This document shows positions 1-52,098 of a DNA stretch of 64,000 nt, in pieces. The notes beneath the pieces were generated by a model. It ran no database searches. It saw only the letters and a program-made list of their open reading frames with translations, and was not told the origin of the DNA. A program made the position numbers and the translations under genes. The number at the start of each line of letters is the position of its first letter. Position 1 is the first letter of the stretch. This DNA is from a virus, in UHGV virus genome UHGV-0299153. One strand, 5' to 3'.

Positions 1-72
1 ACAATAGGTTTTCTGCAGCTATCGAGATCCAGCTTGACAGGTTGGACGGTAAAGTACTGAAAACTTACTAAG

Positions 73-117
73 TTTATTTTTAGATGGCCTTGACTTCAGG
101 GCCATCAATAAAGTAAA
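73..117 (+). promoter_or_regulatory. Repeated 45-bp element, copy 1: palindrome GATGGCC-N10-GGCCATC with embedded TTGACT, then ATCAATAAAGTAAA
   Basis: Near-identical copy at 3821-3865 (1 mismatch); degenerate copy at 421-450; each lies 30-45 bp upstream of a start codon. Confidence 0.5.
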
Positions 118-160
118 CTTTATACTGTTAACACTGAACTAATTCAGAGGAGTTAAAACC

Positions 161-406
161 ATGGCAGCACTAATCACCAAATATTATGCCCCTACCAACA
201 CCAAAAGCGCCCGTATCATGGTAAAAGGCTTCGGACGTAAAAAGGTTTACACCTGGGATTATGCCTTAGACACGGAAGACAACTACACCAACGCGATGAC
301 CGATTTTATTAATGATCTGAACACGCGGATCTTGACAAATTATAAAATTACCGATATTGCCTATATAGGGGAAGGCGGGATCTGTTTTGTCGGTATCGTC
401 AAATAA
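161..406 (+). CDS. hypothetical early protein (81 aa)
   Basis: ORF track; GAGGAG SD 8 nt upstream of ATG; preceded by repeated promoter element. Confidence 0.55.
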   Translation: MAALITKYYAPTNTKSARIMVKGFGRKKVYTWDYALDTEDNYTNAMTDFINDLNTRILTNYKITDIAYIGEGGICFVGIVK

Positions 407-481
407 GCTGTTTTTTCGGTGGTCCTGGTAGCAGGGCCATCTATAAAGATAGTTTATCAACACAATGAAAGGAGAAAGTAC

Positions 482-835
482 ATGATCAGCGGGGCAAGTT
501 TTATTATTGGCGCTATTGCTACGGCTTTAATTGTAAACAAGATCCAATCTAAAAACGAAAAAGAGAGCAACGCGCTCACAGAATACCCATTTTGGGTATT
601 CAACGACAATGAAGACTACATTATCAAGTACAAGAATGAGAAGGGCGACCAGGTAACACCGCGACCGATCCCAGCTTACAAGATGCAAGAAACACTATAC
701 CGCCTAAAGGCTGGAGGCGCAAAAATCGTAGACTTTTGGGGATATGATTGCAAGGATCAGGAGGTTATAAAGCGCCGTATCCGGGCTATTCAGGCCAATA
801 TTGAAGTTAGCAAGGGGGGAATATATGAAGATTAA
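482..835 (+). CDS. hypothetical membrane protein (117 aa, N-terminal TM helix)
   Basis: Internal ATG of ORF 419-835 preceded by AAAGGAGAAAG SD; hydrophobic ISGASFIIGAIATALIV. Confidence 0.5.
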   Translation: MISGASFIIGAIATALIVNKIQSKNEKESNALTEYPFWVFNDNEDYIIKYKNEKGDQVTPRPIPAYKMQETLYRLKAGGAKIVDFWGYDCKDQEVIKRRIRAIQANIEVSKGGIYED

Positions 836-1022
836 TTTTGAGAAGATTGTAAAGCGATCTCATGATTCCAAAGAGCTGCCGGAACGACGCCAGCGTAACA
901 ATAAACTGAATAAGCCGAAAAGATTTGGGAAGATCTGGCGAAATCACTATGATCGCAAATTACCCAGCCTGCTTTTGGAACGTGAACGACAAGCGGAACG
1001 ATACCGCCACAAAGACAAATAG
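825..1022 (+). CDS. hypothetical basic protein (65 aa)
   Basis: Internal ATG of ORF 801-1022 with GGGGGGA SD; overlaps upstream gene end; followed by terminator. Confidence 0.45.
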   Translation: MKINFEKIVKRSHDSKELPERRQRNNKLNKPKRFGKIWRNHYDRKLPSLLLERERQAERYRHKDK

Positions 1023-1030
1023 CAACCAAC

Positions 1031-1057
1031 GCCCCGCCATTGTGCGGGGTTTTTTAT
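1031..1057 (+). terminator. Rho-independent terminator
   Basis: CCCCGC/GCGGGG 6-bp stem, 6-nt loop, followed by TTTTTT. Confidence 0.6.
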
Positions 1058-1204
1058 TTCTATCCTACGAATAGCGCCCCTGGTTGGCCCCACAAACGCC
1101 ACAAAAGCCCCTACCTATGCAATCCCCTTTATTAACCTGAAAACATCACCCAGGGCCGTTTTATGGTGTTAAAAAATATCATTGACAGTGATTTTATTTA
1201 AAGC

Positions 1205-1233
1205 TTGACACCTTGGAATAGTCCGGATATACT
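1205..1233 (+). promoter_or_regulatory. sigma70-like promoter
   Basis: TTGACA-17 bp-TATACT, 35 bp upstream of ORF 1269. Confidence 0.45.
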
Positions 1234-1268
1234 AACCACATCAAAGCAAGAAGGAAGGAGTAAACGCC

Positions 1269-1529
1269 ATGCGTAAATTGAAAAATTTTGATAAGGTAGA
1301 TGTAGTACTGAATAATTTTTACTACTGCAATAATAAAGCCGTTTGGTGGCGTGATAGTTCCACCGATAAAGTTAAGGCGCGCTTTCTCCAGGGGCACTGG
1401 CAAGGCCGTCCAGTGATTAAAATCATGGGGCAATTGGTAGCGTTTAAAAATTGCCGCTGTGTTGATGACGTTGAAGAGATTTTAAGCATTTTGCGCCACA
1501 ATAATTTAAAAAATAGTGTTGACAAGTAA
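1269..1529 (+). CDS. hypothetical protein (86 aa)
   Basis: ORF track; GGAAGGAG SD upstream. Confidence 0.5.
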   Translation: MRKLKNFDKVDVVLNNFYYCNNKAVWWRDSSTDKVKARFLQGHWQGRPVIKIMGQLVAFKNCRCVDDVEEILSILRHNNLKNSVDK

Positions 1530-1546
1530 ATCTCGATAAGTATACT
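1519..1546 (+). promoter_or_regulatory. sigma70-like promoter
   Basis: TTGACA-16 bp-TATACT, followed by hairpin GGCGGGA-AAAC-TTCCCGCC and SD AGGAGAA before ATG 1604. Confidence 0.5.
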
Positions 1547-1603
1547 TAAACACACAGGCGGGAAAACTTCCCGCCACTAACAAAGAAAATAGGAGAAAAT
1601 ATC

Positions 1604-2227
1604 ATGACCACCGTTAACATTACCACAGGTTACAATTTATCTTTCGACGTGCTGACCGATGAACAAAAAGAAAAAGCTATTGAAATGGTCCGCGAAAGAG
1701 AAGAACACAGCGGGGATAACTTTTTTGCAGAAAGTGTAATTGAAGACTATAAAGAACATATCTTTCCAGAGTATGGCCTTGAAGATACCAAGGTACATTG
1801 GTCCGGCTTTTGGTGCCAGGGCGACGGCGCGTCAATCAGTGCGGAAAACGTGGATTTAGAAAAATTCTTGCGTAAAGTCAAGTCTCTGACTAAATTCCGC
1901 TCAATTCGTCACTTGTTCGGCACAATGCACGATGGCGAGCTATCCGCAAGTGTTGAGCGTGATCCATATAGCCGCTATAGTCACGAAAACACTGTAAGCG
2001 GGTACATCGATACTACATGGCTAGACCTGACCGCCAAACAAGAAAATAAAGTGGAAGATCTGGAAGAGCTGATCACCGAGACGGTACGGGAGCTATCCCG
2101 CAAGGTTTACGTAGACCTGGAGGAGGCCTATCTAGAACAGTTCACTACCGAAAACCTGATCGGCCTTATTGAGGCCAATGATTGGCGGTTTGATGTGGAT
2201 GAATATGGAGAGATGAGTTTTTCATAA
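1604..2227 (+). CDS. hypothetical protein (207 aa)
   Basis: ORF track; SD AGGAGAA; no domain recognised. Confidence 0.6.
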   Translation: MTTVNITTGYNLSFDVLTDEQKEKAIEMVREREEHSGDNFFAESVIEDYKEHIFPEYGLEDTKVHWSGFWCQGDGASISAENVDLEKFLRKVKSLTKFRSIRHLFGTMHDGELSASVERDPYSRYSHENTVSGYIDTTWLDLTAKQENKVEDLEELITETVRELSRKVYVDLEEAYLEQFTTENLIGLIEANDWRFDVDEYGEMSFS

Positions 2228-2316
2228 ATAAGTGTTGCAATAATCTAAAAACCTGCTATATTAAAACTCAAGGGGCAAGACGTTTGCCCCCCACACAAAA
2301 CAAAGAGGAAAACATC

Positions 2317-2697
2317 ATGAAAAACACTACTAAAGCTATTGACACCGTCATGTTTAACCTGGTTACCTTTCGCGAGGATATGAAAGATCTTCCACGTGAA
2401 ACAGTGTGCGATCACATTGAAAACTATCGCAAACTAATCAAAGAGTTGCCTTTAAAACGTGATCAGTATGCGGCTAACGCCATGCTTAATGCCATGATCA
2501 AAAAGATGATCCAGTGTGATTTAACTCTGGCCTATGACTATGCGGGTGGTCGTTTTGCAGTATACAATCAGCCCGTGCCCGGTATGGGCACCACCGAAGA
2601 ATTGCACGCGTTAAATCTGAAGCAAGATGTATGGGATAACATGCCCCGCGTGGTGGTGTGGGCAGAAAGCGGAAAGATTTACGGCGATAATTTTTAA
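2317..2697 (+). CDS. hypothetical protein (126 aa)
   Basis: Internal ATG of ORF 2284-2697 preceded by hairpin plus CACACAAAACAAAGAGGAAAACATC leader. Confidence 0.55.
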   Translation: MKNTTKAIDTVMFNLVTFREDMKDLPRETVCDHIENYRKLIKELPLKRDQYAANAMLNAMIKKMIQCDLTLAYDYAGGRFAVYNQPVPGMGTTEELHALNLKQDVWDNMPRVVVWAESGKIYGDNF

Positions 2698-2761
2698 TCA
2701 GGTAACAGGCGGCAAATATGCCGCCTTATTGTTAAACAGAGCTGCAAAAGAGGTACATAGA

Positions 2762-3133
2762 ATGGAATTTATTATTTTGGCTGTAGTAGTTGCCTTGTTC
2801 AACGCCTGGATAGCTGGCAAAATAGGTAGATCCGCTTTTCTATGGTTTGTTATATCTATTTTCCTGGGAGTGGTTGCAACCATTGTACTAGTTATCCTTG
2901 CAATTGTTGACAAGGATAATAATAAGAAGGGTAAAGTATTTTCCGACCTGTATGACGCCCAAACTTTTGTTAACGCCTATTATAGTGATCTTCCGGTCTC
3001 CTTGCGCTGCAGCCTGGCGCAACAAGTTTTTGATGAGGCTAAAACCAGAGATCAAGCCCATGAGATATGTTTAACTGAGGCGGATCGCCTATTTGAGAGG
3101 AATAGAAAATATGTGGGCCAGCCGTTTAAATAA
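2762..3133 (+). CDS. hypothetical membrane protein (two predicted TM helices)
   Basis: Internal ATG of ORF 2627-3133 with AAAGAGG SD; hydrophobic N-terminal half. Confidence 0.5.
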   Translation: MEFIILAVVVALFNAWIAGKIGRSAFLWFVISIFLGVVATIVLVILAIVDKDNNKKGKVFSDLYDAQTFVNAYYSDLPVSLRCSLAQQVFDEAKTRDQAHEICLTEADRLFERNRKYVGQPFK

Positions 3134-3243
3134 TACCACGTTAATTAATCCCTTTAATGAAGATTTGAAGCCAGCCGCCTGGCGTGATGGATTCAATAAC
3201 GAACGCTTTATTTTCAGGCCTGATCTTGAGGAATTTTATAACA

Positions 3244-3369
3244 ATGGATCGAACAACAGCGGAGATAATTTTTCTTGTGGTGTGCGTGGTGATAGGACTC
3301 CTGGGGGCCATTGTAAACCACGTCACTACTAACAGGAGGGAAGGGGGAGACGATGACAACCAAGGATAA
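3244..3369 (+). CDS. possible small membrane peptide (41 aa)
   Basis: Internal ATG of ORF 3184-3369 with GAGG SD; hydrophobic core; competes with overlapping ORF 3093-3332. Confidence 0.3.
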   Translation: MDRTTAEIIFLVVCVVIGLLGAIVNHVTTNRREGGDDDNQG

Positions 3370-3476
3370 GCCATGCGCTGATAAGGTGCGCCGTGTTATG
3401 GTATGGCTTGAGATCATCGCCCTTGAAATATTGTTAGGCGTAGGGATGTATTTTATCTCTGTAAGTAACTGATAAC

Positions 3477-3508
3477 GGCCCCCGATCCCTGGGGGCCTAA
3501 CTTTTTTC
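3477..3508 (+). terminator. Rho-independent terminator
   Basis: GGCCCCC/GGGGGCC 7-bp stem, 7-nt loop, followed by TTTTTT. Confidence 0.6.
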
Positions 3509-3617
3509 AAAAAATTTTTCTTCCGGGGTGTTGCAATCCGGTCCTGAATATGGATAATAACAATCAACGGGGAGACACTCCCCACCACACAGACAAAGTT
3601 CCAGAAGGGGAAACAAA

Positions 3618-3818
3618 ATGAGCAACAATATCCGCGTTATTAACTTCAAAAAAGAAGAAAAAATTGCTGTGCTGGTTGATGGTCAAGAAATATTCAAGGG
3701 GTATTATGAAGATCATCAAACGGCGATTAGTATCACTCGCGTGATTGGTTACCATAATTTTTACCCTCAAGGCGCTGAGGCAGCAGTAAAACGAATTAAA
3801 GAGATTGTAGGCCTGTAA
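3618..3818 (+). CDS. hypothetical protein (66 aa)
   Basis: ORF track; preceded by TTGCAA promoter-like box, hairpin GGGGAG-ACA-CTCCCC and CA-rich leader. Confidence 0.55.
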   Translation: MSNNIRVINFKKEEKIAVLVDGQEIFKGYYEDHQTAISITRVIGYHNFYPQGAEAAVKRIKEIVGL

Positions 3819-3820
3819 AA

Positions 3821-3865
3821 TTTATTTTTAGATGGCCTTGACTCCAGGGCCATCAATAAAGTAAA
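3821..3865 (+). promoter_or_regulatory. Repeated 45-bp element, copy 2
   Basis: Same sequence as 73-117 with one mismatch; upstream of ORF 3910. Confidence 0.5.
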
Positions 3866-3909
3866 TTTAAACCCTGTTAAAATAATCAGTGCAAAAAGGA
3901 GGAATGATC

Positions 3910-4209
3910 ATGTTTATCCAGGCTAATAATCTTTATTTCTTTGATGGTCAGATCGTAGACGGCGTGGAGGTGGAAATCACCGGGTGCCCTGGCGGTCAGG
4001 TTATGACTTTTCGGAATAATGCCTTTGATGATTCTCATATCGTTATGAGAATGGAAGTTAGTAAGCTGGATGACAAGAAAACACTTATCGACTATTCCGT
4101 CAAAGATCATCCAGACTACCACATGATCTATGGTGATTTGTGCATTGTTGACCGTGACAAGGTGAACGGCATTGTTATAGCCATTGTGAACGATGTTTTC
4201 TCTGAATAA
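3910..4209 (+). CDS. hypothetical protein (99 aa)
   Basis: Internal ATG of ORF 3889-4209, 7 nt after GGAGG. Confidence 0.55.
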   Translation: MFIQANNLYFFDGQIVDGVEVEITGCPGGQVMTFRNNAFDDSHIVMRMEVSKLDDKKTLIDYSVKDHPDYHMIYGDLCIVDRDKVNGIVIAIVNDVFSE

Positions 4210-4432
4210 TTCCGGCAAATGATGCAAAATAAGGCCCCTAGCAGGGCCTGCAGCGATATAATCACATAAAGGCTATGCGGTTGCATGGCCTTTATTATTT
4301 TAGCGTTACAGCGGCCCCAAGGCGCTTAAAAATTTTTTAAAGAAGTACTTGCATCAAGCCCTACAATATGGATAATAGGACGTGTCAGGGGGGAGGCCCC
4401 AATCATTAACCGGATAGATAGGAGTTAAAACC

Positions 4433-4717
4433 ATGGCTATTGTTACCGCTGGCGATGTAGTAGAAATGGAAGCAAAATACTTAAAAGCGGGTATGCATAT
4501 CCTACGCAACGATCTTGAACTGGTCCTGACAATGGTTGACTATAACCCAGGGCAAGATTATCCAAGTGTTGACTACTTTTTTGAGTATGTTGATGAAGAG
4601 TTGAAAGAGGATGAGGCCTATTGCGGTGAGTTCTGCAACTTCTTTTGTCCTGATGAGGTTGTAAAGGTTATCTATCAACCTGGCGTAGCTTTCCCGCTGC
4701 ACGCTATCAATAAATAA
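4433..4717 (+). CDS. hypothetical acidic protein (94 aa)
   Basis: ORF track; SD AGGAG upstream. Confidence 0.55.
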   Translation: MAIVTAGDVVEMEAKYLKAGMHILRNDLELVLTMVDYNPGQDYPSVDYFFEYVDEELKEDEAYCGEFCNFFCPDEVVKVIYQPGVAFPLHAINK

Positions 4718-4779
4718 ACCTGGCGGGGCCGAAAAGGCCTCCGCCTGAAATTATGAAAAATAAAAAGAGGCAAACTATC

Positions 4780-5010
4780 ATGATGGAACAAATTAAACGC
4801 GCTGAGGCTATTAATGGCAATGTGATCTATTTTGTCAGCAATAACGAAAAAGGCGTACCATATGCGGCGGTAATAGTACAGCCTGACGGCGATTATTGGT
4901 TTACTGTGTACGGCGCTTACTCTTTTGGGCGTCCAGTGCATGATAAAATTTTGAAAGTAGCGAACCCTACCGGGAAGAATATCACAGCAGAAAAATTTTT
5001 TGAAAAATAG
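4780..5010 (+). CDS. hypothetical protein (76 aa)
   Basis: Internal ATG of ORF 4753-5010, 9 nt after AAAGAGG. Confidence 0.5.
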   Translation: MMEQIKRAEAINGNVIYFVSNNEKGVPYAAVIVQPDGDYWFTVYGAYSFGRPVHDKILKVANPTGKNITAEKFFEK

Positions 5011-5038
5011 TTGACATGGCCTTATAAGACTGTAGAAT
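5011..5038 (+). promoter_or_regulatory. sigma70-like promoter
   Basis: TTGACA-16 bp-TAGAAT, followed by hairpin GGGGGC-AACA-AGCCCC and leader CACAAAGAGG. Confidence 0.5.
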
Positions 5039-5090
5039 ATAAATCAAAGGGGGCAACAAGCCCCACCAACCACAAAGAGGATAAAAAATC

Positions 5091-5270
5091 ATGGCTATTA
5101 TTGCAAAGACTGAGATCGTAGGCTTAGATTCTATTCTCCTCGCATATGAGGAAGCTATAGAAATGTATGTGGTTTCCTATGGTGAATATATCCGTGAATA
5201 TAAATCTATTGATCTGGCTTTTGAATGTTATATTCGCCAGGTTAATAAAGCGTACGATGATTATCGTTAA
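5091..5270 (+). CDS. hypothetical protein (59 aa; below the ORF-track cut-off)
   Basis: Translated by hand: ATG 5091 to TAA 5268-5270, 60 codons; canonical promoter/hairpin/SD module upstream. Confidence 0.45.
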   Translation: MAIIAKTEIVGLDSILLAYEEAIEMYVVSYGEYIREYKSIDLAFECYIRQVNKAYDDYR

Positions 5271-5360
5271 AATAGTTTGACAACAAACAACCATCTAACA
5301 AAGCATAATACATAAGGCGGTGGAATGGTCCGCCACCTGGAACAAGAAGAGGAAAACAAG

Positions 5361-5465
5361 ATGAAACAGAAATTAATTGATGCGGTGATCCTGGTTATTG
5401 CCCTGGGTATTGGCCTGATTGCAACCATGGCTAATATGATCTTGTCTTCCAACGGTATCGGGTGA
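5361..5465 (+). CDS. hydrophobic micro-protein (34 aa, MKQKLIDAVILVIALGIGLIATMANMILSSNGIG)
   Basis: Translated by hand; SD AGAGGAAAA upstream; preceded by hairpin GGCGGTGG-AATG-GTCCGCCACC. Confidence 0.4.
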   Translation: MKQKLIDAVILVIALGIGLIATMANMILSSNGIG

Positions 5466-5474
5466 GGTTGGCAA

Positions 5475-5690
5475 ATGATCACTAACAAAACAGGCAAAAC
5501 AGAATTTTTACGCAACTTACAGATCGGCAAGCCTGAGATCTGGCATTGCACTAAAGCACCACGTGACGAAATGAAAGACTTCACCGCCACGCTGCAACGG
5601 GTAAAGATATCCATCACGCAGAAAAAGGCCTTGATAGTGGTGGAAGGTGAGATCCCTCAAACCGTTGTTATAGTTGAACGTACAGCATAG
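5475..5690 (+). CDS. hypothetical protein (71 aa)
   Basis: ORF track; GTGAGG SD-like upstream. Confidence 0.5.
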   Translation: MITNKTGKTEFLRNLQIGKPEIWHCTKAPRDEMKDFTATLQRVKISITQKKALIVVEGEIPQTVVIVERTA

Positions 5691-5781
5691 TTTAATTTAT
5701 ACCGATACCCGAAAATTAACCAACAAAGCATAAACAGGCGGTTACCGCCGCCTTAAACGTAGCAGAAAGAGGATAGACACA

Positions 5782-6066
5782 ATGAAAAAGATGATCGCAG
5801 TGGTTGCCCTGGTTGTTGGACTTAATGCGCCTGTAATGGCTAAAGAGCTGGCAAAAGAGGTTAATCTAACGGATATTCATGCCGTCAATCAAATCGGGGT
5901 TACTTATCGCTTATGCCTTGCCGCTAAAACTTTCCAGGACGGCACGACAGAGTGCTACGGATTCGAGGGTATCCGGTGCGGTGAGCTTGCTCGCGACCTT
6001 AAGGAAGATCCAGACCTGGAAGATCTGCCCATCACCGTAAACGGTAAAGCTTACGTAAACCGTTAA
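5782..6066 (+). CDS. hypothetical secreted protein (signal peptide)
   Basis: N-terminus MKKMIAVVALVVGLNAPVMA resembles a Sec signal peptide; AAAGAGGA SD; hairpin in leader. Confidence 0.55.
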   Translation: MKKMIAVVALVVGLNAPVMAKELAKEVNLTDIHAVNQIGVTYRLCLAAKTFQDGTTECYGFEGIRCGELARDLKEDPDLEDLPITVNGKAYVNR

Positions 6067-6068
6067 CC

Positions 6069-6203
6069 ATGAGAAAGATAATCATCACCTTGGGGATTGT
6101 GGCGGGATCGCTGGCGCTCTTTCCCCTTATGGTTAGATATGTGCTGATTAATGTTGTCCTGGTAGTCAGCGATCTGGTGTTATATATTAACTCATTGTTT
6201 TAG
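6069..6203 (+). CDS. possible hydrophobic micro-protein (44 aa)
   Basis: Translated by hand; start overlaps upstream stop; weak SD. Confidence 0.3.
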   Translation: MRKIIITLGIVAGSLALFPLMVRYVLINVVLVVSDLVLYINSLF

Positions 6204-6211
6204 GCGCGATA

Positions 6212-6403
6212 ATGACAGCGGAAGAAGTTAAAAAAGTACTGGCGGTACTGCGTTATCATAATCATTGCAAGGTGAAGAATGATCCTGATTATCTTGATTC
6301 ATCCCTTGAAGAGGATACACTACAAGCCATAAGCAACATGCAAGAATTGCTTAAGCGTATGACAGAGAAAAACCGACCGGACTACATAGGGGGTAAAATA
6401 TGA
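6212..6403 (+). CDS. hypothetical protein (63 aa)
   Basis: ORF track; stop overlaps next start (ATGA). Confidence 0.45.
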   Translation: MTAEEVKKVLAVLRYHNHCKVKNDPDYLDSSLEEDTLQAISNMQELLKRMTEKNRPDYIGGKI

Positions 6404-6711
6404 TCGCTATTACGCCAACCGTTTTAGATTGGTATCGGCAACGCATAGCGCCTCCGCTGGCTATCTTCAAAGATGCGGAAGCAAAACAACGCCGGATCTC
6501 AATACATGAGATCATCAACCTTAACGCTGGAGGCACACCATACCGCCCAGGACCTGGCCGTGAGATGGACAATACGTTAGCGATCCTGAAGATACGCCGT
6601 AAACGGTCCTCCCTTACTCTGGACTCATTACACACAATGCAGCCTCCGTTCCAGGTGACCGGGAAACGGATCGCCAGGTCCTGGACAAAGGCCAATGATC
6701 GGACCGTATAA
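6400..6711 (+). CDS. hypothetical protein (103 aa)
   Basis: ORF track; ATGA overlap with upstream gene suggests translational coupling. Confidence 0.5.
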   Translation: MIAITPTVLDWYRQRIAPPLAIFKDAEAKQRRISIHEIINLNAGGTPYRPGPGREMDNTLAILKIRRKRSSLTLDSLHTMQPPFQVTGKRIARSWTKANDRTV

Positions 6712-6845
6712 ATAAAAGTGTTTTGGTACTGATTTTGGGGTTGACTTGTTCGGCCCCTTTTGCTATTCTTATTAAACGGGCGGCACTTGGGAACAGGGGG
6801 AGACAATCACCGGGCCTGCCTGTCATATAAGAACTATAAAAACCG

Positions 6846-6874
6846 TTGACATCTGCCATGGGGTGAGGTAACAT
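6846..6874 (+). promoter_or_regulatory. sigma70-like promoter
   Basis: TTGACA-17 bp-TAACAT, followed by hairpin GGGCA-AAAG-TGCCC and leader CACACAACAACCAGGAGAGAGG. Confidence 0.45.
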
Positions 6875-6928
6875 TTATCTTGAAGGGGCAAAAGTGCCCA
6901 CACAACAACCAGGAGAGAGGAAAACACT

Positions 6929-7201
6929 ATGTCAAGCTGGATTAATCAAGAAGTCGAATCACGTTTTAATGCTATTTGGGATCTCATCGAAAAAGAGGAC
7001 GGAACATCAAGCCCCTACCTCAACAATTTGGAATTCCATTTTGTGGAAGCGATGAACGCAGAACATGATCACGAAGGTGGCGCGGATGAGTTCGCTAAAG
7101 GTTATGGCTTTAACAATGCCAACGAAATGATCGAGGCGGTCGTACTCCAAGCTGAGGAAGATTATCAATTAAAAACGCTTGAATTCTGCCGCCATAAGTA
7201 A
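6929..7201 (+). CDS. hypothetical acidic protein (90 aa)
   Basis: ORF track; strong leader module. Confidence 0.55.
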   Translation: MSSWINQEVESRFNAIWDLIEKEDGTSSPYLNNLEFHFVEAMNAEHDHEGGADEFAKGYGFNNANEMIEAVVLQAEEDYQLKTLEFCRHK

Positions 7202-7261
7202 TAAGATAATGACACGGGCCAAAAGGCCCACTAATCAGAACCGCACAAAGAGGTAAACATC

Positions 7262-7525
7262 ATGAAACGTCTTGATCAGCTCAAATTAGTTCAATATATG
7301 GCTTATCGTGTTCTTGAAGTCCAGAAAGGTAGCAAAAAAGAGGTTTGCGAGAAAGCTTATAAGATCTTCACTCGCAAAAAAGATGACTGGATGCTACGCC
7401 AGACTAAAAAGGCTGACATCTTGGGGTACCTGGAAGAAGAGATCCGCCTTGAAGAGCAAGAAGAGATCCGCCGTAGTGAGGCAGATTATCAGGCAGCTTG
7501 GGAAAACTGGATGAGCAACAAATAA
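7262..7525 (+). CDS. hypothetical protein (87 aa)
   Basis: ORF track; hairpin GGGCC-AAAA-GGCCC then CACAAAGAGG leader. Confidence 0.55.
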   Translation: MKRLDQLKLVQYMAYRVLEVQKGSKKEVCEKAYKIFTRKKDDWMLRQTKKADILGYLEEEIRLEEQEEIRRSEADYQAAWENWMSNK

Positions 7526-7591
7526 TACAACAAGTTACATGGTCAGGGGCAATAAAGCCCCTTGATCACATAAAAATTATGCTATCCCTGG

Positions 7592-7620
7592 TTGACAGGG
7601 ATCGGCAGTTTTGCTATATT
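7592..7620 (+). promoter_or_regulatory. sigma70-like promoter
   Basis: TTGACA-17 bp-TATATT upstream of ORF 7670. Confidence 0.5.
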
Positions 7621-7669
7621 CTTTTTTGAAGGGAAGTTGTAAGAAAATTAACTAAGAGGTAAAAACACC

Positions 7670-8089
7670 ATGAACATTAAATCTAATAATCCGGCATATA
7701 GCTTTGATAACGCTTTTTGTCACGGTCCGGCGGCGAAAGGATTCGAAATCGATGGTAAACTAATTATTGTCAATGTTGACGGGGAAGAGGTTGCAGTATA
7801 TCCGGTGGCAGACGTAAAAAGCCGTTTACAATGCCGCATGGATGTTACCGCCTATCAGCTTGATCCGGTCCGCATAGTTGCCCTGGTCCTGGAAGAAGAA
7901 ATTAAAGCCATGCACCATAGCAACAGATTTATTGGTGACGCGCAGGATAATATGAAAGTATGCCGCCATAAAGTTAATGAAGTGCTTAAAGAGTACGGCT
8001 ATAAAGATCTTATGATCAAACGTGAGGAAAAATTCCGCTACCGTAACGACCTGGCAAATCGGATTTTTGAAATATACGAATCATTATAA
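7670..8089 (+). CDS. hypothetical protein (139 aa)
   Basis: ORF track; SD AAGAGG; last gene of rightward block. Confidence 0.55.
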   Translation: MNIKSNNPAYSFDNAFCHGPAAKGFEIDGKLIIVNVDGEEVAVYPVADVKSRLQCRMDVTAYQLDPVRIVALVLEEEIKAMHHSNRFIGDAQDNMKVCRHKVNEVLKEYGYKDLMIKREEKFRYRNDLANRIFEIYESL

Positions 8090-8108
8090 TTTTTTAACTG
8101 AATTATCA

Positions 8109-8132
8109 AGGGGCTTAGGCCCCTTTCTTTTT
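8109..8132 (+). terminator. Rho-independent terminator ending the rightward early block
   Basis: AGGGGC/GCCCCT stem, TTAG loop, then TTCTTTTT. Confidence 0.6.
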
Positions 8133-8749
8133 GTCTGCTCTTCTCCTACCATAAACGGCCCTACCTGGCAAGTGGAATAATTGACTAGCCATCAATCCCG
8201 CATACTGTACAAATATACATGGAAAATAACTATTGCATAATTTTTCATTGTGTGGTAGCAAGTCCATTTTTACCCGTTTTCTCTCCCAAAAGTGCACGTA
8301 ATGCCGCTATTGCACAAATTTTAACCTGATGCACATCTCCAATATCTTGTCAACAACTAAAAATCTTTATAAGTCATACACTTACACAGCATCGAAAGCG
8401 TGTTCTACGCGAAAAATCGAGTATAACTATAGCCGCCAGATCTCAGAATTCACGTACGCACGCCATTCTATAGCCTGCAAAGTATTTATTCCAACCACAG
8501 AATAACGGAATAGTCAATACCTGCATAAAATAATTATTCGTGTAAACTGCATAACATAAATCAGCTCAGGTGTCAACATTTTTCGTAAACAGTCCGAAAT
8601 TATCACGATGAGTTATCATAAACAGAGAAATCTTTAGTCGTCTAATGTTTACTGTACATTACTATACTGACTGGAATCATTAGATGACTAAGAGAAAGAT
8701 AAGAAATAATTAATAATGTAATTATTTTACCTGTAACAATAAGGCAACT

Positions 8750-9030
8750 ATGCAAACGAATGGCATGGCGCGACGGAGTCGCGACATAATATAAAAGCAG
8801 TAACCATCACCCCCGTGATAGTTTGTCTGCAAACTATTAATCAGATCATAGTTGCCTTGTATTTAGTTAATCGTGACATAACAAGCAAGGCAACTATAGA
8901 TCTTCTAATAGTTGCCCTGCTTTTATATTATGTCATAGAAACACCCGAAGGGGTGACCAAAGGTCACCTGGCATAGCCAGTGAAAGATTGTAAACAAGTT
9001 AATTATTATCATGCAAACGAATGGCATGGC
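8750..9030. repeat. 20-bp direct repeat ATGCAAACGAATGGCATGGC (8750-8769 and 9011-9030)
   Basis: Exact match read from sequence. Confidence 0.7.
8783..8934. repeat. 18-bp perfect inverted repeat GACATAATATAAAAGCAG / CTGCTTTTATATTATGTC enclosing GGCAACTAT/ATAGTTGCC sub-repeats
   Basis: Arms at 8783-8800 and 8917-8934; GGCAACTAT at 8743 and 8889, ATAGTTGCC at 8848 and 8908. Confidence 0.7.
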
Positions 9031-9042
9031 TTATCATCTCTG

Positions 9043-9097
9043 TGTAAATAGTTTGTTTGTAAACAGTTTATACGTGAACAGTTAGCTGTGTAAACTA
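9043..9097. repeat. Cluster of TGTAAA(C/T)AGTT-like iterons
   Basis: TGTAAATAGTT, TGTAAACAGTT, GTGAACAGTT, TGTAAACTAT within 55 bp; related copies near 8540, 8825 and 9359. Confidence 0.55.
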
Positions 9098-10585
9098 TCA
9101 GGCATGTCAATTATGCCCGGTGTGTTTAAGGTGCCCAGTATGTCAGACAAGTTTTTCTCCTCTTTGTCAAGTGCTGCATGAAAAATTTACAAACTGGTAT
9201 GGTAGCATTTTTGCGGCCCTGTTTACATTCAGTAATGTATGTATAATCCTTGTTGTGTGGGCGTTTAGACGTCTAGACGGTTGGAAGTCCACAGGTCAAT
9301 ATCTAATCTATCGGCTGCTAACTATATCCCACACAAATAGTAAGAAATATAATTGTTATGTGTGTAAACAGTAACTCATGTTATCAATCCCTGTATGGAT
9401 CGCCAGTGGTGCGCATAATGGGTATTATGTTAAATTGCCCGTAATGATAACTATTCTCACAATGATAGGTATTCTCATTCCCCCACACAAAATAGATTGC
9501 AAATGTTGTGCCACTATGTGAACGGCCTCACCTATTAATTTGCCTCACTGCCTCGATATTTGAGAATTATTATAAGAATGAGAAGTATTCCCATTCCGTC
9601 CGCCTGGCAGCACTCCAGTCGCTACCGCTCATGACAGGGCAGAACTGGGTCCATTCAGATATTTCTGGCTGACTCTTCAGGCCTGTGTGGGAAAAGCCAA
9701 CCTCTCCGGCGGCGGCGGGGAGGGGTTTGTCAGGAAAATTGCAGGTCAATTAAAAAATTTACGGGGTATATGAAGCGCTCTTCAGATAAGGCATGTATTA
9801 TGGGATGAAACCCTCTTCAGGCAATGATATTTGTGGGTGTGATATTTGCTGGAAAGCCAGATATGACGGGACTCCCGGCGGGGCAGGGGTAGTACAGACA
9901 GGGAAAATATGGAGGATGTGGTTGGGTAAATTGATCAGGCAGGTAGAGTATGGAATATGTTACAGGTATGTTAAATAGGGAGGCTGAATATCTGTAGGAT
10001 TTGTGTGTAAAATCAAAGACTTAAGGGGTGTTGTGGTATTTTCTATAAATAATTCAAGTTTAATAGGCAATATTTGTCTCTATCCGCTTTGTGTGGTAAA
10101 CAGATTCAGATTAGATTGGTTTACAAGTGTATACATAATATACAAATTAAAGATACAAGAAACCCCCCTCCCCCTTCGGCTACCATTCACCTTTTCCTCT
10201 GACTGGTACTTAAACACTTATTCAGACTTTTCAGGTTATCACCCATATACCATATGGCAGTGACTGGTGTCCTCCGGCCCCTCTTTCGTCACCCGTCCGC
10301 TTCGCCATGCTAATGCCATAGCCAATGGTTCGGTTGTTCACCCTGTTCACTCAGGTGTATCTCCATACCCCTTCAAACCGAAGAGAACAGAAAACCCGAA
10401 TTACTCGGTAAAAGAAAAGAGAAGAACTTAATTTTATCAGGATAGGCAAGAATGTCAAGGCATGACTGCTCACTAAACAAGCAAACAGTCATGTGTGGGA
10501 GGTAAGTGATTGTGGTGGTAGGAAATTTAGTTGAAAGATGTGTTATAGGTGCTCCCAGCACTTTAGCCGGGTAGCTAATTGTGTG

Positions 10586-10801
10586 TCAGTCCAGTGGTTC
10601 ATCACCTACTTCACTGAAATCAATGTTCATGGTCTCCTCCCAACCATCAATCTCAGCACCAGAGTAGAGATCTTTAGGACTTACTCCCAAAGCCTCAGCA
10701 ACAGAGTCTATATTTAACACCTCTGGCAGGTATGATTCATCGAGTTCAAGGTAAATCAGGCCACGAGTGTTGTCAGCTCCACCAAATATTTCTATCTTCA
10801 T
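10586..10801 (-). CDS. hypothetical small acidic protein (72 aa)
   Basis: Internal ATG of ORF 10586-10867 with GAGGAG SD; last gene of leftward block. Confidence 0.5.
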   Translation of the reverse strand: MKIEIFGGADNTRGLIYLELDESYLPEVLNIDSVAEALGVSPKDLYSGAEIDGWEETMNIDFSEVGDEPLD

Positions 10802-10921
10802 GAAATCTCCTCTGGAAATGAGAATGTGAACAGGGTTTATATGTTCCAATGCACTGGAATTATGCACGTTTGCCTCTTCAGGCCATGCTTTAGCATGAGG
10901 AACCTGTGTGGGCTCGGTGCT

Positions 10922-11335
10922 TCATAGTCTACCACCTCTGAACTCTTCGTGCTCAGGCATAATAGAGAACCAGATATCTACGATGTCTTCCCACGTTAGG
11001 TCATCAGCCTCAGGATCTACCTGGAGCGAAGATGGAGAATCTTCAGAATCGAAGTTTTCCTCTTGCACTGGCTCAGTCAAGGGACATACAGTCACTCCTT
11101 TGGATGTCTCTTCAGATGCATGTGTGTTTATCATGTTCCACCCGTGAGTATTCCGGCAACAGCCACTATGGACGTAATGATCATCAGGATCACCACCAAA
11201 ACCTCTGACAATGTTTTCATTGTGTATCCCATATTCTCCAAACGATGTGTGGATACTATCACTGGAGCGGCAATGTGTCAACAGAAACGCCGCGAGGGTT
11301 TGGTTAAAATCCGAGCGTATGGTGATTTGGGTCAA
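10922..11335 (-). CDS. hypothetical protein (start uncertain)
   Basis: ORF track only; acidic C-terminus like neighbours; competing plus-strand ORFs. Confidence 0.3.
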   Translation of the reverse strand: MTQITIRSDFNQTLAAFLLTHCRSSDSIHTSFGEYGIHNENIVRGFGGDPDDHYVHSGCCRNTHGWNMINTHASEETSKGVTVCPLTEPVQEENFDSEDSPSSLQVDPEADDLTWEDIVDIWFSIMPEHEEFRGGRL

Positions 11336-11494
11336 AACGGACGTGCGTTCTCGCTACGCTCGAAATATGGAGTTGTTTGTAGGGAGCTCTTAAACGCTCT
11401 GTAATGAGATTAACTACCCAAGGTATGCAATCGTGCACCAGATAAAGAAAAGGACGCCACAGAGCGTCCTAGGTGTCTTAAATTTGATATTTTG

Positions 11495-11806
11495 CTATAC
11501 CCACGAGGGCTTATCAAGGTTGGAGTAGCTGAAAGGTGTCAAAAGGTGACTGTCAAAATCTCTCAAACTATCCAAATCTTTTTCCTCGTCCTGACACCAT
11601 CTGTGCCTACATTTGTTGTTGTAGTGCATGGAATGCATAGCGTTCTGCAACTTAACAGGCACAAGTGATTCAGGAGTAGATAGTATTGTTGGGTATGCCA
11701 GAACCACCTCAAACAGTGGAAACACATCGAAACTAAAGTCTACCTCTGCAGAGGTTGATGGCATATAGGAGTATTTAGCCGCCTTTGTAGACATAATCCA
11801 CCTCAC
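11495..11806 (-). CDS. hypothetical protein (103 aa)
   Basis: ORF track; start overlaps upstream gene end. Confidence 0.4.
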   Translation of the reverse strand: MRWIMSTKAAKYSYMPSTSAEVDFSFDVFPLFEVVLAYPTILSTPESLVPVKLQNAMHSMHYNNKCRHRWCQDEEKDLDSLRDFDSHLLTPFSYSNLDKPSWV

Positions 11807-12174
11807 ACAGGTTTGATAATACCTTCACCGAATAGCTCTTCGTATCTAATCTTGTCCGGATCCCACTCCTGTATAATTTCGAAGACAATATCCAACCCAG
11901 GAACAATCACTTCTCCAGTGTCAAGCTTAGCAAGAACAAAACCGGAAGGTTGAATGGTTTCCCAGTTACGGCGATCAGAATAAAATACTTCGAAAATATC
12001 GCCAACCTCAATCCGTTTCTGTTGCTCAAGATGCTCAAGGTTCTCTTTCATACGGATGCAGCGTATTTTTCGTGCAGGCCATAGACCACCTGCATCACGT
12101 TCATTCAATTCTTTTACAGTGATCGGTATACCCATCTCAAATCTCCTCCATAGATAGTAAAAAGAGGGGCCCAA
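11803..12174 (-). CDS. hypothetical protein (123 aa)
   Basis: ORF track; GGAGGAG SD upstream. Confidence 0.5.
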   Translation of the reverse strand: MGPSFYYLWRRFEMGIPITVKELNERDAGGLWPARKIRCIRMKENLEHLEQQKRIEVGDIFEVFYSDRRNWETIQPSGFVLAKLDTGEVIVPGLDIVFEIIQEWDPDKIRYEELFGEGIIKPV

Positions 12175-49013: not shown

Positions 49014-49073
49014 TGTCCGTCACGCGGACACATCTGCCCGTAATACGGACACTAACTGTCCGTGATACGGACA
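49014..49073. repeat. Iteron array: alternating TGTCCGT / ACGGACA half-sites (5 copies)
   Basis: TGTCCGT 49014 and 49057; (A)CGGACA 49025, 49045, 49067; followed by 130-bp AT-rich block with palindromes AGTAC-N5-GTACT. Confidence 0.7.
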
Positions 49074-49577
49074 CATAAAGAATATAACTAAAATAACTAA
49101 ATAATAAAAATAAAAGATCTAGTACTTATGGTACTAAGTACATATACTTAACTTATGTAGAATATATTAGATCCTAAGTACCATGTTTTTAAATTTATTA
49201 CTTACTATGGGTAGTGTCGGCCCTTCATTGGCACTCGCCTACGAGGGGCGAGATGCCGGGCCTCCCTAGTGCACACAATAACAGAGGTGCATACATGCAG
49301 GTCTGTTAACATGTGTGGGAGCGAAGCGATAGCGCAGGCCAAAGGCCGAGCACTAATGTGGGCCACCGACGAAAGCTTGCCAGCGCCGTAAGGAGTCGGT
49401 TGAGAGCCTCCCGCGCGAGTTTGGATAAAGTTTATGTGTGGAAACGGATAATGAGGCCCCTAAATCACTCAACAGCTATATAAACCATACCAAGTAATGC
49501 AATCGCACCAGTTTGATAGAAAAGCTCGTTACAAAGCGATACAGTGAGTTTTTCTATAACTTGAAGAGGAGGCAGCT

Positions 49578-51447: not shown

Positions 51448-51522
51448 GCCCTGTTAGCTTAGTGGATAAAGCAGCGGCCTTCTAAGCCGTTGACACTGGT
51501 TCGAGTCCAGTACGGGGTGCCA
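51448..51522 (+). tRNA. tRNA-Arg (anticodon TCT)
   Basis: Cloverleaf folded by hand: acceptor GCCCTGT/ACGGGGT, anticodon loop CTTCTAA, T-arm ACTGG-TTCGAGT-CCAGT, encoded CCA. Confidence 0.75.
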
Positions 51523-51526
51523 AATT

Positions 51527-51613
51527 GGGGAGTTATCCCGTAGAGGTAGCGGTGTAGACTGTAAATCTATTGTCATTGCGACTCGGGTGGTTCGACTCCA
51601 CCACTCCCCACCA
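51527..51613 (+). tRNA. tRNA-Tyr (anticodon GTA), type II
   Basis: Acceptor GGGGAGT/ACTCCCC, anticodon loop CTGTAAA, long variable arm, T-arm GGTGG-TTCGACT-CCACC, encoded CCA. Confidence 0.8.
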
Positions 51614-51728
51614 AATTTATATTTTTTAGATGCATAAATAATACAGATAATGGCATTGATATTTATCGTCGTTTATACTAGTCACTAACTGCTCGAAAAT
51701 CAGTGTCATTATCAGTATAATTTATAAA

Positions 51729-51819
51729 GGAGGGTAGGGAGCAATGGTGCTCAAGCGGTCTTGAAAACCGTCCCGTTGAGGATGACTCGATGATGGTTCG
51801 ATTCCATTACTCTCCGCCA
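51729..51819 (+). tRNA. tRNA-Ser (anticodon TGA), type II
   Basis: Acceptor GGAGGGT/ACTCTCC, anticodon loop CTTGAAA, long variable arm, encoded CCA. Confidence 0.75.
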
Positions 51820-52014: not shown

Positions 52015-52021
52015 CCTTTTT

Positions 52022-52097: not shown

Positions 52098-52098
52098 T

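Follow-up and report, generated by a model that had tools for sequence, protein, structure and literature searches.

Why does one stereotyped leader precede gene after gene in the early region of this phage, and what might its hairpin do? The window analysed here, a stretch of 64,000 nt of the viral genome UHGV-0299153 whose coordinates are used throughout, is from an rV5-like coliphage (Vequintavirus). Its positions 1–8100 form the end of a rightward early block of small genes, and these 8.1 kb hold 23 small genes of unknown function. We find that the block reuses one compact cassette, made up of a host-type promoter, a 5′ GC hairpin, an A-rich and U-poor spacer and a strong ribosome site, and that this module is genuine and conserved, a variant of the cassettes of promoter and stem-loop that T4-like phages are known to carry.

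Hairpin leaders in the early-gene block

An earlier, sequence-only reading had flagged eight leaders of this kind. All eight start codons lie at the coordinates that it gave, and a perfect GC-rich hairpin was found upstream of each flagged gene (8/8), with its 3′ end 26–34 nt before the ATG. Of the intergenic gaps of at least 45 nt within 1–8100 (n = 16; hairpin threshold dG ≤ −5), 15 contain a GC hairpin, compared to 1.67 ± 1.09 in 200 dinucleotide shuffles, and in 11 of the 16 the hairpin ends 15–38 nt upstream of the ATG (shuffles 0.51 ± 0.67, maximum 3). The pattern is thus far commoner than in shuffled sequence, a comparison that the sequence-only reading had named as one possible refutation of its claim. 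Hairpin leaders are also present at genes 4433, 4780 and 2762, which were absent from its list; the total in the window is 11, including five (2762, 4780, 5361, 5782 and 7262) without a canonical promoter (Table 1).

Table 1. Parts of the hairpin leaders in the early block (window coordinates)
Feature	Position	Strand	Details
Promoter of gene 1604, sigma-70-type	1519..1546	+	TTGACA-16-TATACT, 11/12
Class A hairpin, gene 1604	1557..1575	+	GGCGGGAA-AAC-TTCCCGCC; 10 nt past −10
Linker (A-rich, U-poor), ribosome site AGGAG and ATG, gene 1604	1576..1606	+	
Promoter of gene 2317	2235..2262	+	TTGCAA-16-TATATT; TG precedes −10
Class A hairpin, gene 2317	2272..2290	+	GGGGCAA-GACGT-TTGCCCC; 9 nt past −10
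Linker and ATG, gene 2317	2291..2319	+	CCACACAAAACAAAGAGGAAAACATC
Promoter-less hairpin, gene 2762	2707..2726	+	35 nt before ATG; T-rich tail TATTGTT, more terminator-like
Promoter of gene 3618	3531..3558	+	TTGCAA-16-GATAAT
Class A hairpin, gene 3618	3569..3583	+	GGGGAG-ACA-CTCCCC; 10 nt past −10
Linker, ribosome site and ATG, gene 3618	3584..3620	+	ACCACACAGACAAAG...
Promoter of gene 4433	4349..4376	+	TTGCAT-16-GATAAT; direct reading of sequence
Class A hairpin, gene 4433	4389..4400	+	G-run and C-run, GGGG-GAGG-CCCC
Promoter-less hairpin, gene 4780	4722..4745	+	GGCGGGGCC-GAAAA-GGCCTCCGCC
Promoter of gene 5091	5011..5038	+	TTGACA-16-TAGAAT, 11/12
Class A hairpin, gene 5091	5050..5064	+	GGGGC-AACAA-GCCCC; 11 nt past −10; covariance-model match 5041–5093
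Linker and ATG, gene 5091	5065..5093	+	ACCAACCACAAAGAGGATAAAAAATC
Class A hairpin, gene 5361	5315..5338	+	9 pairs, one bulge, one G.U pair; perfect hairpin 5316–5334
Leader and first codons, gene 5361	5345..5376	+	Duplicated on each side of 291-bp insertion in Murica, navn
Promoter-less hairpin, gene 5782	5736..5753	+	AGGCGG-TTACCG-CCGCCT; 28 nt before ATG
Promoter of gene 6929	6846..6874	+	TTGACA-17-TAACAT; P168 in rV5 record
Class A hairpin, gene 6929	6886..6899	+	GGGCA-AAAG-TGCCC; 11 nt past −10; covariance-model match 6875–6931
Linker and ATG, gene 6929	6900..6931	+	ACACAACAACCAGGAGAGAGGAAAACACT
Promoter-less hairpin, gene 7262	7216..7229	+	GGGCC-AAAA-GGCCC; 32 nt before ATG
Linker, ribosome site and ATG, gene 7262	7230..7265	+	Duplicated on each side of 257-bp insertion in rV5 and three other relatives

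The flagged leaders had been described as usually lying downstream of a promoter. This holds, with canonical spacing, at genes 1604, 2317, 3618, 5091 and 6929, but not at gene 5361, where TTGACA and CATAAT stand 21 nt apart, nor at genes 5782 and 7262, upstream of which a convincing promoter was not found. An AT-rich stretch precedes each of the six window promoters. The hairpin starts 9–12 nt past the −10 in the six promoter-bearing copies, and a similar spacing is seen in ESCO37, A5-4 and RudolfGeigy (8–15 nt, mode 10), even though neither the hairpins nor the spacers that precede them can be aligned in sequence; it could in part have been inherited along with the cassette rather than selected. 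Assuming that transcription starts 6–8 nt after the −10 of these promoters, which are consensus matches only, about 2–5 unpaired nucleotides would lie between the predicted 5′ end and the hairpin. In all eight predicted leaders the hairpin is both the minimum-free-energy and the centroid structure, and the region of the ribosome site is open. A second hairpin class in the block encloses the −35, starting 37 nt upstream of where the −10 ends.

The linkers are rich in A and poor in U when compared to the surrounding region (A 0.51, C 0.19, G 0.19 and T 0.12, vs. a background of 0.32, 0.20, 0.23 and 0.25, respectively). The tract after the hairpin had been called CA-rich, a label that does not fit, as C is not enriched overall. 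Linkers are rich in A-R-N triplets, and the RNase E-type motif RNWUU is less frequent in them than regionally (10.7 vs. 23.6 per kb). The reported ribosome site with its A-rich spacer is present (AGAGG-type) but is not specific to the module, being found also on leaders without a class A hairpin (161, 481, 1269, 3910 and 7670). The 10 nt 3′ of the eight flagged hairpins contain 0–2 T, compared to 7–9 T in 10 nt at canonical U-tract terminators of the same block (1032–1049, 3477–3497 and 8108–8125); class A hairpins thus lack, on the coding strand, the U-tract of intrinsic terminators. A terminator scan called some of the hairpin copies, on the opposite strand.

Conservation of the hairpin among relatives

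The module is found also in Phapecoctavirus and other relatives, and selection acts on the structure of the hairpin, not on its sequence. Orthologous leaders differ per site by 0.067 in their stems and by 0.239, or 3.6 times as much, in their loops, and 100 of 104 distinct leader variants retain the hairpin. Compensatory double changes were observed (GGGGC..GCCCC to GGCGGGC..GCCCGCC, and GGGGG..CCCCC to GGAGG..CCTCC), as were two exact inversions of the hairpin; at gene 2317, relatives show a compensatory variant and a loop inversion, and at gene 4433 the lengths of the G-run and C-run differ greatly among relatives. Stem-disrupting single changes occur in some relatives, e.g., in the gene 1604 leader of L002, L009 and L014. 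Among 19 paralogous copies, the paired share of cells is 85.7%, vs. 78.4% in shuffles, and 0 of 500 shuffles reach the observed value; one aligned stem pair is G.U in 8 of the 19.

A covariance model trained on ESCO37 and A5-4 leaders only was compared to both strands of the 64 kb, and its five best matches are five window copies. The best is the gene 5361 leader (5305–5363, E = 7.7 × 10−5); the leaders of genes 1604 (1547–1606, E = 0.004) and 2317 (2263–2319) are also matched. In five other loci, all 33 matches of the model are on the coding strand. The 5′ arm has more G than C in 109 hairpins and the reverse in 20, with 3 tied, and a strand comparison of G.U vs. A.C gave 14 vs. 8 cases, which are not independent. 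Among the curated models of Rfam 15, the only match was RF03091, at chance level (30.6 bits vs. a gathering threshold of 94.4, E = 0.86).

Comparison with known systems

The closest known kind of element is the promoter-early stem-loop (PeSL) cassette of T4-like phages, described from RB49/phi1, PST/T4 and nt-1/KVP40 (PMC2839356, PMC4122927). Both are repeated units of ~60–100 bp between small orphan early genes, with an AT-rich region and a sigma-70 consensus promoter, a GC stem-loop in which a G-run often precedes a C-run, a leader that is CA/A-rich and poor in U, and, at the 3′ end, a strong ribosome site and the ATG; both cluster in a variable region, where indels between close relatives are bounded by cassettes. 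They differ in lineage (Vequintavirus here, Straboviridae there) and in the position of the stem-loop. In RB49, 7 copies have it in the −35/−10 spacer and 6 have it over the −10, and in none does it follow the −10; it starts 24 nt or 14–17 nt before the end of the −10, as opposed to 9–12 nt after it in the window. An nhmmer profile of 12 RB49 PeSLs did not detect the window cassettes (best E = 0.24, on the other strand), nor did the class A model detect the RB49 PeSLs (best E = 0.52); the same RB49 profile detects cassettes of the vequintavirine phage CR3 (E = 1.7 × 10−7 to 3 × 10−4). The sequence-only reading had missed the promoter-less copies, the hairpin class that wraps the −35, and the cassettes as recombination joints related to PeSLs.

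The 5′ UTR stabilisers of ompA and papA in E. coli (cited in PMC3997798) likewise place a stable hairpin a few nucleotides from the predicted 5′ end and, 3′ of it, an unpaired stretch that leads to the ribosome site, with the same expected protection from 5′-end-dependent attack by RNase E. They are, however, single, experimentally verified elements of host genes, whereas the predicted phage design recurs at no fewer than 11 genes of the block and across phage genera, also without a promoter. Intrinsic terminators share the short GC-rich hairpin in intergenic DNA, but the phage hairpin lies downstream of a promoter and has no coding-strand U-tract. Integron attC cassettes resemble the block by analogy only: in both, small, mostly orphan genes with an imperfect hairpin form single-gene units that are gained and lost, but an integrase-type recombinase and conserved core sites were not seen here.

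A possible role in message stability

The geometry of the module, as modelled, fits a 5′-terminal protective stem-loop, and its most likely function would be that of a 5′-terminal or intercistronic hairpin blocking 5′-end-dependent RNase E attack. In E. coli, an mRNA whose 5′ terminus is base-paired is protected against RNase E (Emory 1992; Bouvet and Belasco 1992; reviewed in PMC3997798). Host RNA polymerase would begin transcription at the strong sigma-70 promoter, and the stable GC hairpin, folding in the RNA after the few unpaired nucleotides, would mask the 5′ end against both RppH, a pyrophosphohydrolase, and the 5′-end sensor of RNase E. The next 10–20 nt, A-rich with few U and few G, would leave the AGAGG ribosome site unpaired and offer few RNase E sites, and in the absence of a U-tract the hairpin would not terminate the transcript of its own cassette.

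As five of the 11 copies lack a canonical promoter, protection of primary-transcript 5′ ends cannot be the whole story. In promoter-less copies and on read-through transcripts, the hairpin may act as an obstacle to RNase E scanning from upstream; obstacles shield sites downstream of them against scanning RNase E (PMC11194081). Where 4–5 unpaired nucleotides precede the hairpin, RppH may still be able to reach the 5′ end. Hairpins around the −35 or in the −35/−10 spacer, as in this block, RB49 and CR3, cannot be in their own transcript, and the primary function could be one common to all hairpin positions, either recombination or insulation against transcription arriving from upstream. Some cassettes of CR3 carry a promoter-embedded and a leader hairpin together, which makes the leader hairpin a separate element.

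This last observation also bears against a terminator or attenuator, as first proposed for PeSLs, in which the hairpin stops or damps transcription from the upstream cassette and each small gene depends chiefly on a promoter of its own. Such a role would account for the presence of one hairpin in nearly every gap irrespective of its position relative to the promoter, for class C cassettes (CR3, RB49), which place the hairpin just upstream of a T-rich −10, and for the T-rich tail of the copy at 2707–2726; PeSL stem-loops were reported to lower the expression of a downstream lacZ as a strong terminator would (PMC2839356). We nevertheless consider it unlikely here, because the sequence 3′ of class A hairpins is A/C-rich, U-tract terminators being found elsewhere in the block, and because a terminator 10 nt past a consensus promoter would cut short the very transcript that this promoter starts. 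The lack of a U-tract thus argues, at the level of sequence, against termination by class A hairpins.

Slightly less probable still is a shared element for an RNA-binding factor, whether a RegB-like nuclease that shuts off early messages, Hfq on the A-rich tract, or a means of being spared from RNase E stimulated by an Srd-like protein. One stereotyped leader limited to one temporal block would suit such a factor, as would the A-R-N triplets of the A-rich linker. The Srd protein of T4 stimulates the action of RNase E on host mRNA (PMC4980113), and in the related phage RudolfGeigy a protein with an Srd-like region (phrog_1400, E = 5 × 10−9; phrog_4592, E = 2 × 10−12) adjoins the early block, but its best family match is an HNH endonuclease and its gene is outside the window; a candidate RNA-binding protein was not identified. 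There is, moreover, no conserved loop or stem sequence to be bound: stems differ between copies, and loops vary most of all and have been inverted with the hairpin retained, which weakens the earlier suggestion of a recognition site for a phage or host factor.

Gene insertions at the leaders

Leaders coincide with joints between relatives. The gene insertions of 257 bp and 291 bp listed in Table 1 are flanked by leader repeats of 36 bp and 32 bp, respectively, and further joints are found at 5320 and 5410; indels away from the cassettes also exist (4211–4223 and 6404–6758). Ordinary homology of 32–36 bp at the junctions fits homologous recombination. The cassettes might be recombination modules only, in which gene cassettes are moved by way of homology patches or of hairpins in the DNA, with no role for the RNA. 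We give this a slim chance: these repeats and breakpoints (5320, 5345, 5376 and 5410), the PeSL precedent, mini-circles included, and the exact hairpin inversions, which would be easily explained if the hairpin also forms in DNA, are all in its favour, but it has no need of fixed distances to the −10 and the ATG, a U-poor tail, a bias in arm orientation or occurrence on the coding strand only, nor of compensatory changes that preserve stems while the neighbouring sequence drifts. It is highly improbable that the hairpin is a palindromic operator in the DNA, spanning +3 to +25, at which a dimeric repressor shuts off early promoters, since an inverted repeat right after the −10 and the start point has the classic operator position but its arms differ between copies (GGCGGGAA, GGGGCAA, GGGGAG, GGGCA, GGGCC), the distance between arms ranges from 3 to 9 nt, complementarity rather than sequence is conserved, and copies without a promoter exist.

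Taken together, these comparisons give an about even chance that the early cassette of rV5-like and phAPEC8-like phages is a PeSL variant in which the stem-loop lies in the transcript and not within the promoter, and where it would shield messages from decay. The resemblance of the cassettes to one another would, in addition, provide homology patches for the insertion, loss or swapping of small genes.

A hairpin leader recurs ahead of the small early genes

The first 8.1 kb of the window resemble rV5-like coliphages and match 285 phage records, with identities over this stretch of 99.9% to records named 'Campylobacter phage D1/D#', 96% to Escherichia phage RudolfGeigy and about 94% to rV5. In annotated relatives, the stretch is the distal end of a long rightward block that leads from replication genes to about 45 small genes of unknown function and is followed by a non-coding region of about 2.5 kb. 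We set 23 gene starts in positions 1-8100, guided by the ORF list and by the annotation of RudolfGeigy. Among the intergenic gaps of 45 nt or more, 15 of 16 held a GC-rich hairpin with dG <= -5, compared with 1.67 +/- 1.09 gaps in dinucleotide shuffles of the same sequences, and in 11 gaps the hairpin ended 15-38 nt from the ATG (0.51 +/- 0.67 in shuffles). The excess was likewise present in RudolfGeigy, in A5-4 and in ESCO37, a Phapecoctavirus from another subfamily.

The sequence-only reading had described a stereotyped module at eight of these genes, and had made its case depend on the pattern being more frequent than in shuffled sequence, as the above counts show it to be. The eight start codons (1604, 2317, 3618, 5091, 5361, 5782, 6929 and 7262) stand where that reading placed them, and each is preceded by a perfect GC-rich hairpin whose 3' end lies 26-34 nt from the ATG. 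The hairpin is both the minimum-free-energy and the centroid structure in each of the eight predicted leaders, where the region of the ribosome site is essentially unpaired. The tract that follows the hairpin, described as CA-rich, is actually A-rich and U-poor, with no overall enrichment of C (A 0.51, C 0.19, G 0.19, T 0.12, vs. 0.32, 0.20, 0.23 and 0.25 in the region). The ribosome site of the AGAGG type with its A-rich spacer is present as described, but occurs on leaders that lack the hairpin as well, so that what marks the module is the hairpin together with its position and its U-poor tail. The upstream promoter is canonical at genes 1604, 2317, 3618, 5091 and 6929, but none is convincing at 5782 and 7262; gene 4433 also has a canonical promoter (TTGCAT-16-GATAAT), and genes 4780 and 2762 have no convincing one. 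Ahead of gene 5361, TTGACA and CATAAT lie 21 nt apart (5277-5309), compared with 16-17 nt in related cassettes, and this promoter is possibly disabled or non-standard.

The leader family extends across genera. We aligned 19 class A leaders (those with the hairpin downstream of the -10 element, where a promoter is present), taken solely from ESCO37 and A5-4. The helix of this alignment (A1) was 85.7% paired vs. 78.4% in shuffles, with 0 of 500 shuffles reaching the former value; changes on both sides were found in 4 of 8 pairs, and one pair was G.U in 8 copies, G-C in 6 and A-U in 2. From A1 we derived a covariance model (R1), which was run unfiltered on both strands of all 64 kb. Its five top matches (Table) all terminate exactly at gene starts, and outside 1-8100 it returned nothing better than E of about 1. 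Across five other loci (92 kb), all 33 matches with E <= 1 were on the coding strand, and those in RudolfGeigy were confined to the distal, small-gene part of the block. Scanned against Rfam with a permissive threshold, 1-12000 gave only a chance-level match. The search of IMG/VR for further orthologous loci gave three loci only, and GenBank phage records were substituted as the source of orthologues.

Position of the hairpin relative to the promoter

Measured from the last base of the best -10 hexamer, the positions of the first paired base fell into discrete classes (Table). If transcription begins 6-8 nt past the -10, as we assumed, class A hairpins would start after about 2-5 unpaired nucleotides. 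Neither the hairpins nor the sequences between the -10 and the hairpin can be aligned among the window copies; the spacing is nevertheless preserved. At four gene starts of CR3 (503, 3128, 6220 and 9603 of its locus), the cassette combines a hairpin embedded in the promoter with a class A hairpin in the leader, and this combination speaks for a leader hairpin that is distinct and has a role of its own.

The hairpins that enclose a -35 form a second stereotyped element; among them, tagATGGCCTTGACTTCAGGGCCATcaataaagtaaac occurs in near-identical copies at 83 and 3831, and two such hairpins are annotated as terminators in the Murica record. The sequence that follows the hairpin at 6737-6757 makes this copy a terminator and promoter that overlap.

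Table. Hairpin classes, covariance-model matches and other features of the window
Feature	Window position	Description
Class A hairpins		first paired base +9 to +12 from -10 in window; +8 to +15 (mode 10) in relatives
Class B hairpins	83-106, 418-441, 3831-3854, 7584-7602	-37; -35 TTGAC inside hairpin loop or 3' arm
Class C hairpins		-21 to -25; hairpin within -35/-10 spacer; dominant in Cronobacter phage CR3
Further GC hairpin	6737-6757	promoter -35 TTGAC in loop or 3' arm; followed by TTTTGCTATTCT
R1 match	5305-5363	E 7.7e-5
R1 match	1547-1606	E 0.004
R1 match	6875-6931	
R1 match	5041-5093	
R1 match	2263-2319	
Canonical terminators	1032-1049, 3477-3497, 8108-8125	
Direct repeat	8750 and 9011	perfect, 20 nt, ATGCAAACGAATGGCATGGC
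Inverted repeat	8783-8800 / 8917-8934	perfect, 18 nt
ACGGACA/TGTCCGT copies	49014-49080	direct and inverted, close together: TGTCCGTCACGCGGACA ... ACGGACACTAACTGTCCGT ... ACGGACACA
Seven-tRNA cluster	51448-52261	Arg-TCT, Tyr, Ser, Thr, Met, Pro
tRNA call in cluster	51918-52016	99 nt, four-base anticodon

Conservation and rearrangement of the leaders

We compared orthologous leaders from 14 vequintaviruses and counted differences from the window. The per-site difference was 0.067 in stems, 0.239 in loops, 0.102 in the linker and ribosome site, and 0.090 upstream, and a hairpin with dG <= -5 was kept in 100 of 104 distinct homologous variants. Compensatory double changes were found at gene 2317 in phage WM (GGGGCAA..TTGCCCC to GGCGGGCGA..TTGCCCGCC), at gene 4433 in the relative's locus L008 (GGGGG..CCCCC to GGAGG..CCTCC), and in the class B hairpin of gene 7670 in Murica and rV5 (ATCCCTG..CAGGGAT to ATCCTTG..CAAGGAT). 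Single changes that disrupt a stem also exist, at gene 1604 in three phages. As a test of strand, interior G.U pairs were counted and numbered 66 vs. 46 A.C pairs in a loose count and 14 vs. 8 in a strict one, where the G.U pairs come mostly from orthologous copies of one hairpin. The 5' arm held more G than C in 109 of 132 distinct, non-independent hairpins, more C than G in 20, and equal numbers in 3.

In two cases, the exact reverse complement stands in place of the whole hairpin, with only the loop differing: at gene 1604 in MaxBurger and at gene 2317 in FV3 (window 1557-1575 and 2272-2290, compared with loci L017 and L013). These replacements indicate that the loop sequence is not critical. 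A simple explanation would be that the hairpin can also form in DNA, and inversion is the kind of change expected of template switching or intrahairpin recombination at DNA hairpins. The hairpin of G and C runs ahead of gene 4433 (4385-4402 and orthologues) is hypervariable in length among phages, ranging from GGGGGAGGCCCC up to a run of 18 G in phage V18. This variation may reflect slippage or, for some records, faulty assembly.

Chaining of BLAST matches between the window and 14 relatives placed several recombination joints at leaders. In rV5 and three other phages, an extra 219-bp gene is flanked on both sides by the sequence of window 7230-7265 (linker, ribosome site and ATG), with the hairpin kept in the left copy and missing from the right, and in Murica and navn a 246-bp gene lies between repeats of window 5345-5376. 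Other replacements end at 5320 and 5410, and gene 5361 occurs behind at least four different leaders. The indels at 4211-4223 and 6404-6758 lie away from class A leaders.

Relation to the stem-loop cassettes of T4-like phages

The nearest described kind of element is the promoter-early stem-loop (PeSL) cassette of T4-like phages, which consists of a strong sigma-70 promoter, a stem-loop (often poly-G followed by poly-C), a ribosome site and the ATG, recurs between orphan genes in hyperplastic regions and drives modular shuffling; its stem-loop is reported to act as a terminator (PMC2839356, PMC4122927). We measured the hyperplastic region of RB49 identically to the window. The RB49 leaders are also CA-rich and U-poor. 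Of the RB49 hairpins, seven occupy the spacer (-24), six overlap the -10 (-14 to -17), and none is downstream of that element. An nhmmer profile of 12 RB49 PeSLs detected no copy in the window (best E 0.24), and R1 detected none of the RB49 PeSLs (best E 0.52). The same profile matched CR3 cassettes at E 1.7e-7, 2.6e-4 and 3.4e-4. The early cassettes of CR3 (L006, gene starts 822-10255) have the order TTGACG, GC hairpin, ATAAT and CA-rich leader and are similar to the RB49 PeSLs (L020, 9.4-27.3 kb); this similarity indicates that promoter/stem-loop cassettes are common to T4-like phages and the rV5 subfamily. The window module is thus of the same general kind as the PeSL but of distinct architecture, and is best regarded as a PeSL-like early-gene cassette whose stem-loop lies at the predicted 5' end of the transcript. 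The rV5 record notes a similarity of gene 6929 to an RB49 protein; tblastn against 50,697 phage records gave no T4-like match at E <= 1e-5, and we set this resemblance aside.

The rV5 genome paper gives promoters and terminators, and this leader is absent from it. In the literature searched, we found no transcription start or transcriptome data for rV5-like phages and no prior report of the leader.

Possible function of the leader

The sequence-only reading had proposed either protection of the message from 5'-end-dependent decay or a recognition site for a phage or host factor. The geometry fits a protective 5' stem-loop, and a site for a sequence-specific factor is improbable. In E. coli, mRNA that carries a hairpin only a few nucleotides from its 5' end is protected from 5'-end-dependent attack by RNase E (Emory 1992 and Bouvet and Belasco 1992, cited in PMC3997798), and in the mechanism that we consider most likely, a hairpin as close as this to the predicted 5' end would shield the message in the same way. 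According to PMC11194081, structured obstacles guard the sites beyond them when RNase E scans in from the 5' end, which would give a possible role to the promoter-less, intercistronic copies. RNase E-type RNWUU motifs occur in the U-poor linker at 10.7 per kb (9 sites in 841 nt), vs. 23.6 per kb in the region, and the linker also lacks the U-tract by which the hairpin would become a terminator.

Termination itself is a poor account of the eight hairpins: 0-2 T are found in the ten bases past them, compared with 7-9 T for the canonical terminators of the block, and termination 10 nt beyond a consensus promoter would cancel that promoter's output. A palindromic operator was likewise rejected, since the arms differ in sequence among copies and their spacing, the loop, varies from 3 to 9 nt, a poor fit to a dimeric DNA-binding protein. 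An antisense terminator was rejected as well: the minus-strand matches that resemble one owe their 'T-run' solely to the complement of the A-rich stretch ahead of the hairpin, and the run is missing in relatives, where the corresponding sequence is CTATGTGATAC.

Next to the early block of RudolfGeigy, outside the window, bas52_0056 (L002 1563-2540, minus strand) is annotated as an 'anti-sigma factor'. Its best PHROGs match is the HNH endonuclease family phrog_3118 (E 3e-110), with weak, partial-length matches to the Srd and sigma-70-decoy families (E 5e-9 and 2e-12); Pfam assigned this Srd-like protein to no family, and the annotated name may fit a single domain of a fusion protein. In T4, Srd stimulates RNase E activity against host mRNA (PMC4980113). 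Any link between Srd and the leader is speculative, because the gene lies beyond the window and HNH is the family it matches best. By analogy with T4, the hairpin and U-poor leader could be the 'self' mark of a post-transcriptional regulon, in which the Srd-like protein that phages of this group encode, if it acts as T4 Srd does, would stimulate RNase E on host messages while the leader enables about a dozen early phage messages to escape, the cassette serving also as a gene-capture unit in the variable region; we regard this scheme as improbable.

Other features of the genome

Positions 8090-10700 hold about 2.5 kb without convincing genes between the rightward early block and leftward genes, and correspond to the 'non-coding' box of the rV5 paper. 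The region is dense in repeats (Table), with several copies of ATAGTTGCC(T/C)TG in both orientations, and may serve as a replication origin or act in cis in some other way. The ACGGACA/TGTCCGT copies elsewhere in the window look, from their arrangement, like a cluster of putative regulator binding sites. The long call within the tRNA cluster may be intron-containing, frameshift-suppressor-like or degenerate. MG065646, MG065647 and about 20 further records are named 'Campylobacter phage' with Campylobacter jejuni as host, yet are 93-99.9% identical to rV5-like phages of E. coli, and this host label looks doubtful.

Significance

The leader offers a testable rule for the expression of small early genes of unknown function, in which each gene has its own promoter, 5' hairpin and unstructured, U-poor landing pad for the ribosome, and the rule covers widespread coliphages that are therapeutic candidates (rV5-like and phAPEC8-like). 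In practical terms, the leaders flag true gene starts and recombination-prone joints, and provide small, naturally occurring parts with which genes could be expressed stably in E. coli. The findings extend promoter/stem-loop cassettes past the T4-like phages, with a stem-loop that takes discrete alternative sites, enclosing the -35, within the spacer or at the start of the RNA, from which differing consequences are expected. If the proposed regulon were true, the message-protection signal and the site of gene shuffling would be one element in these phages.
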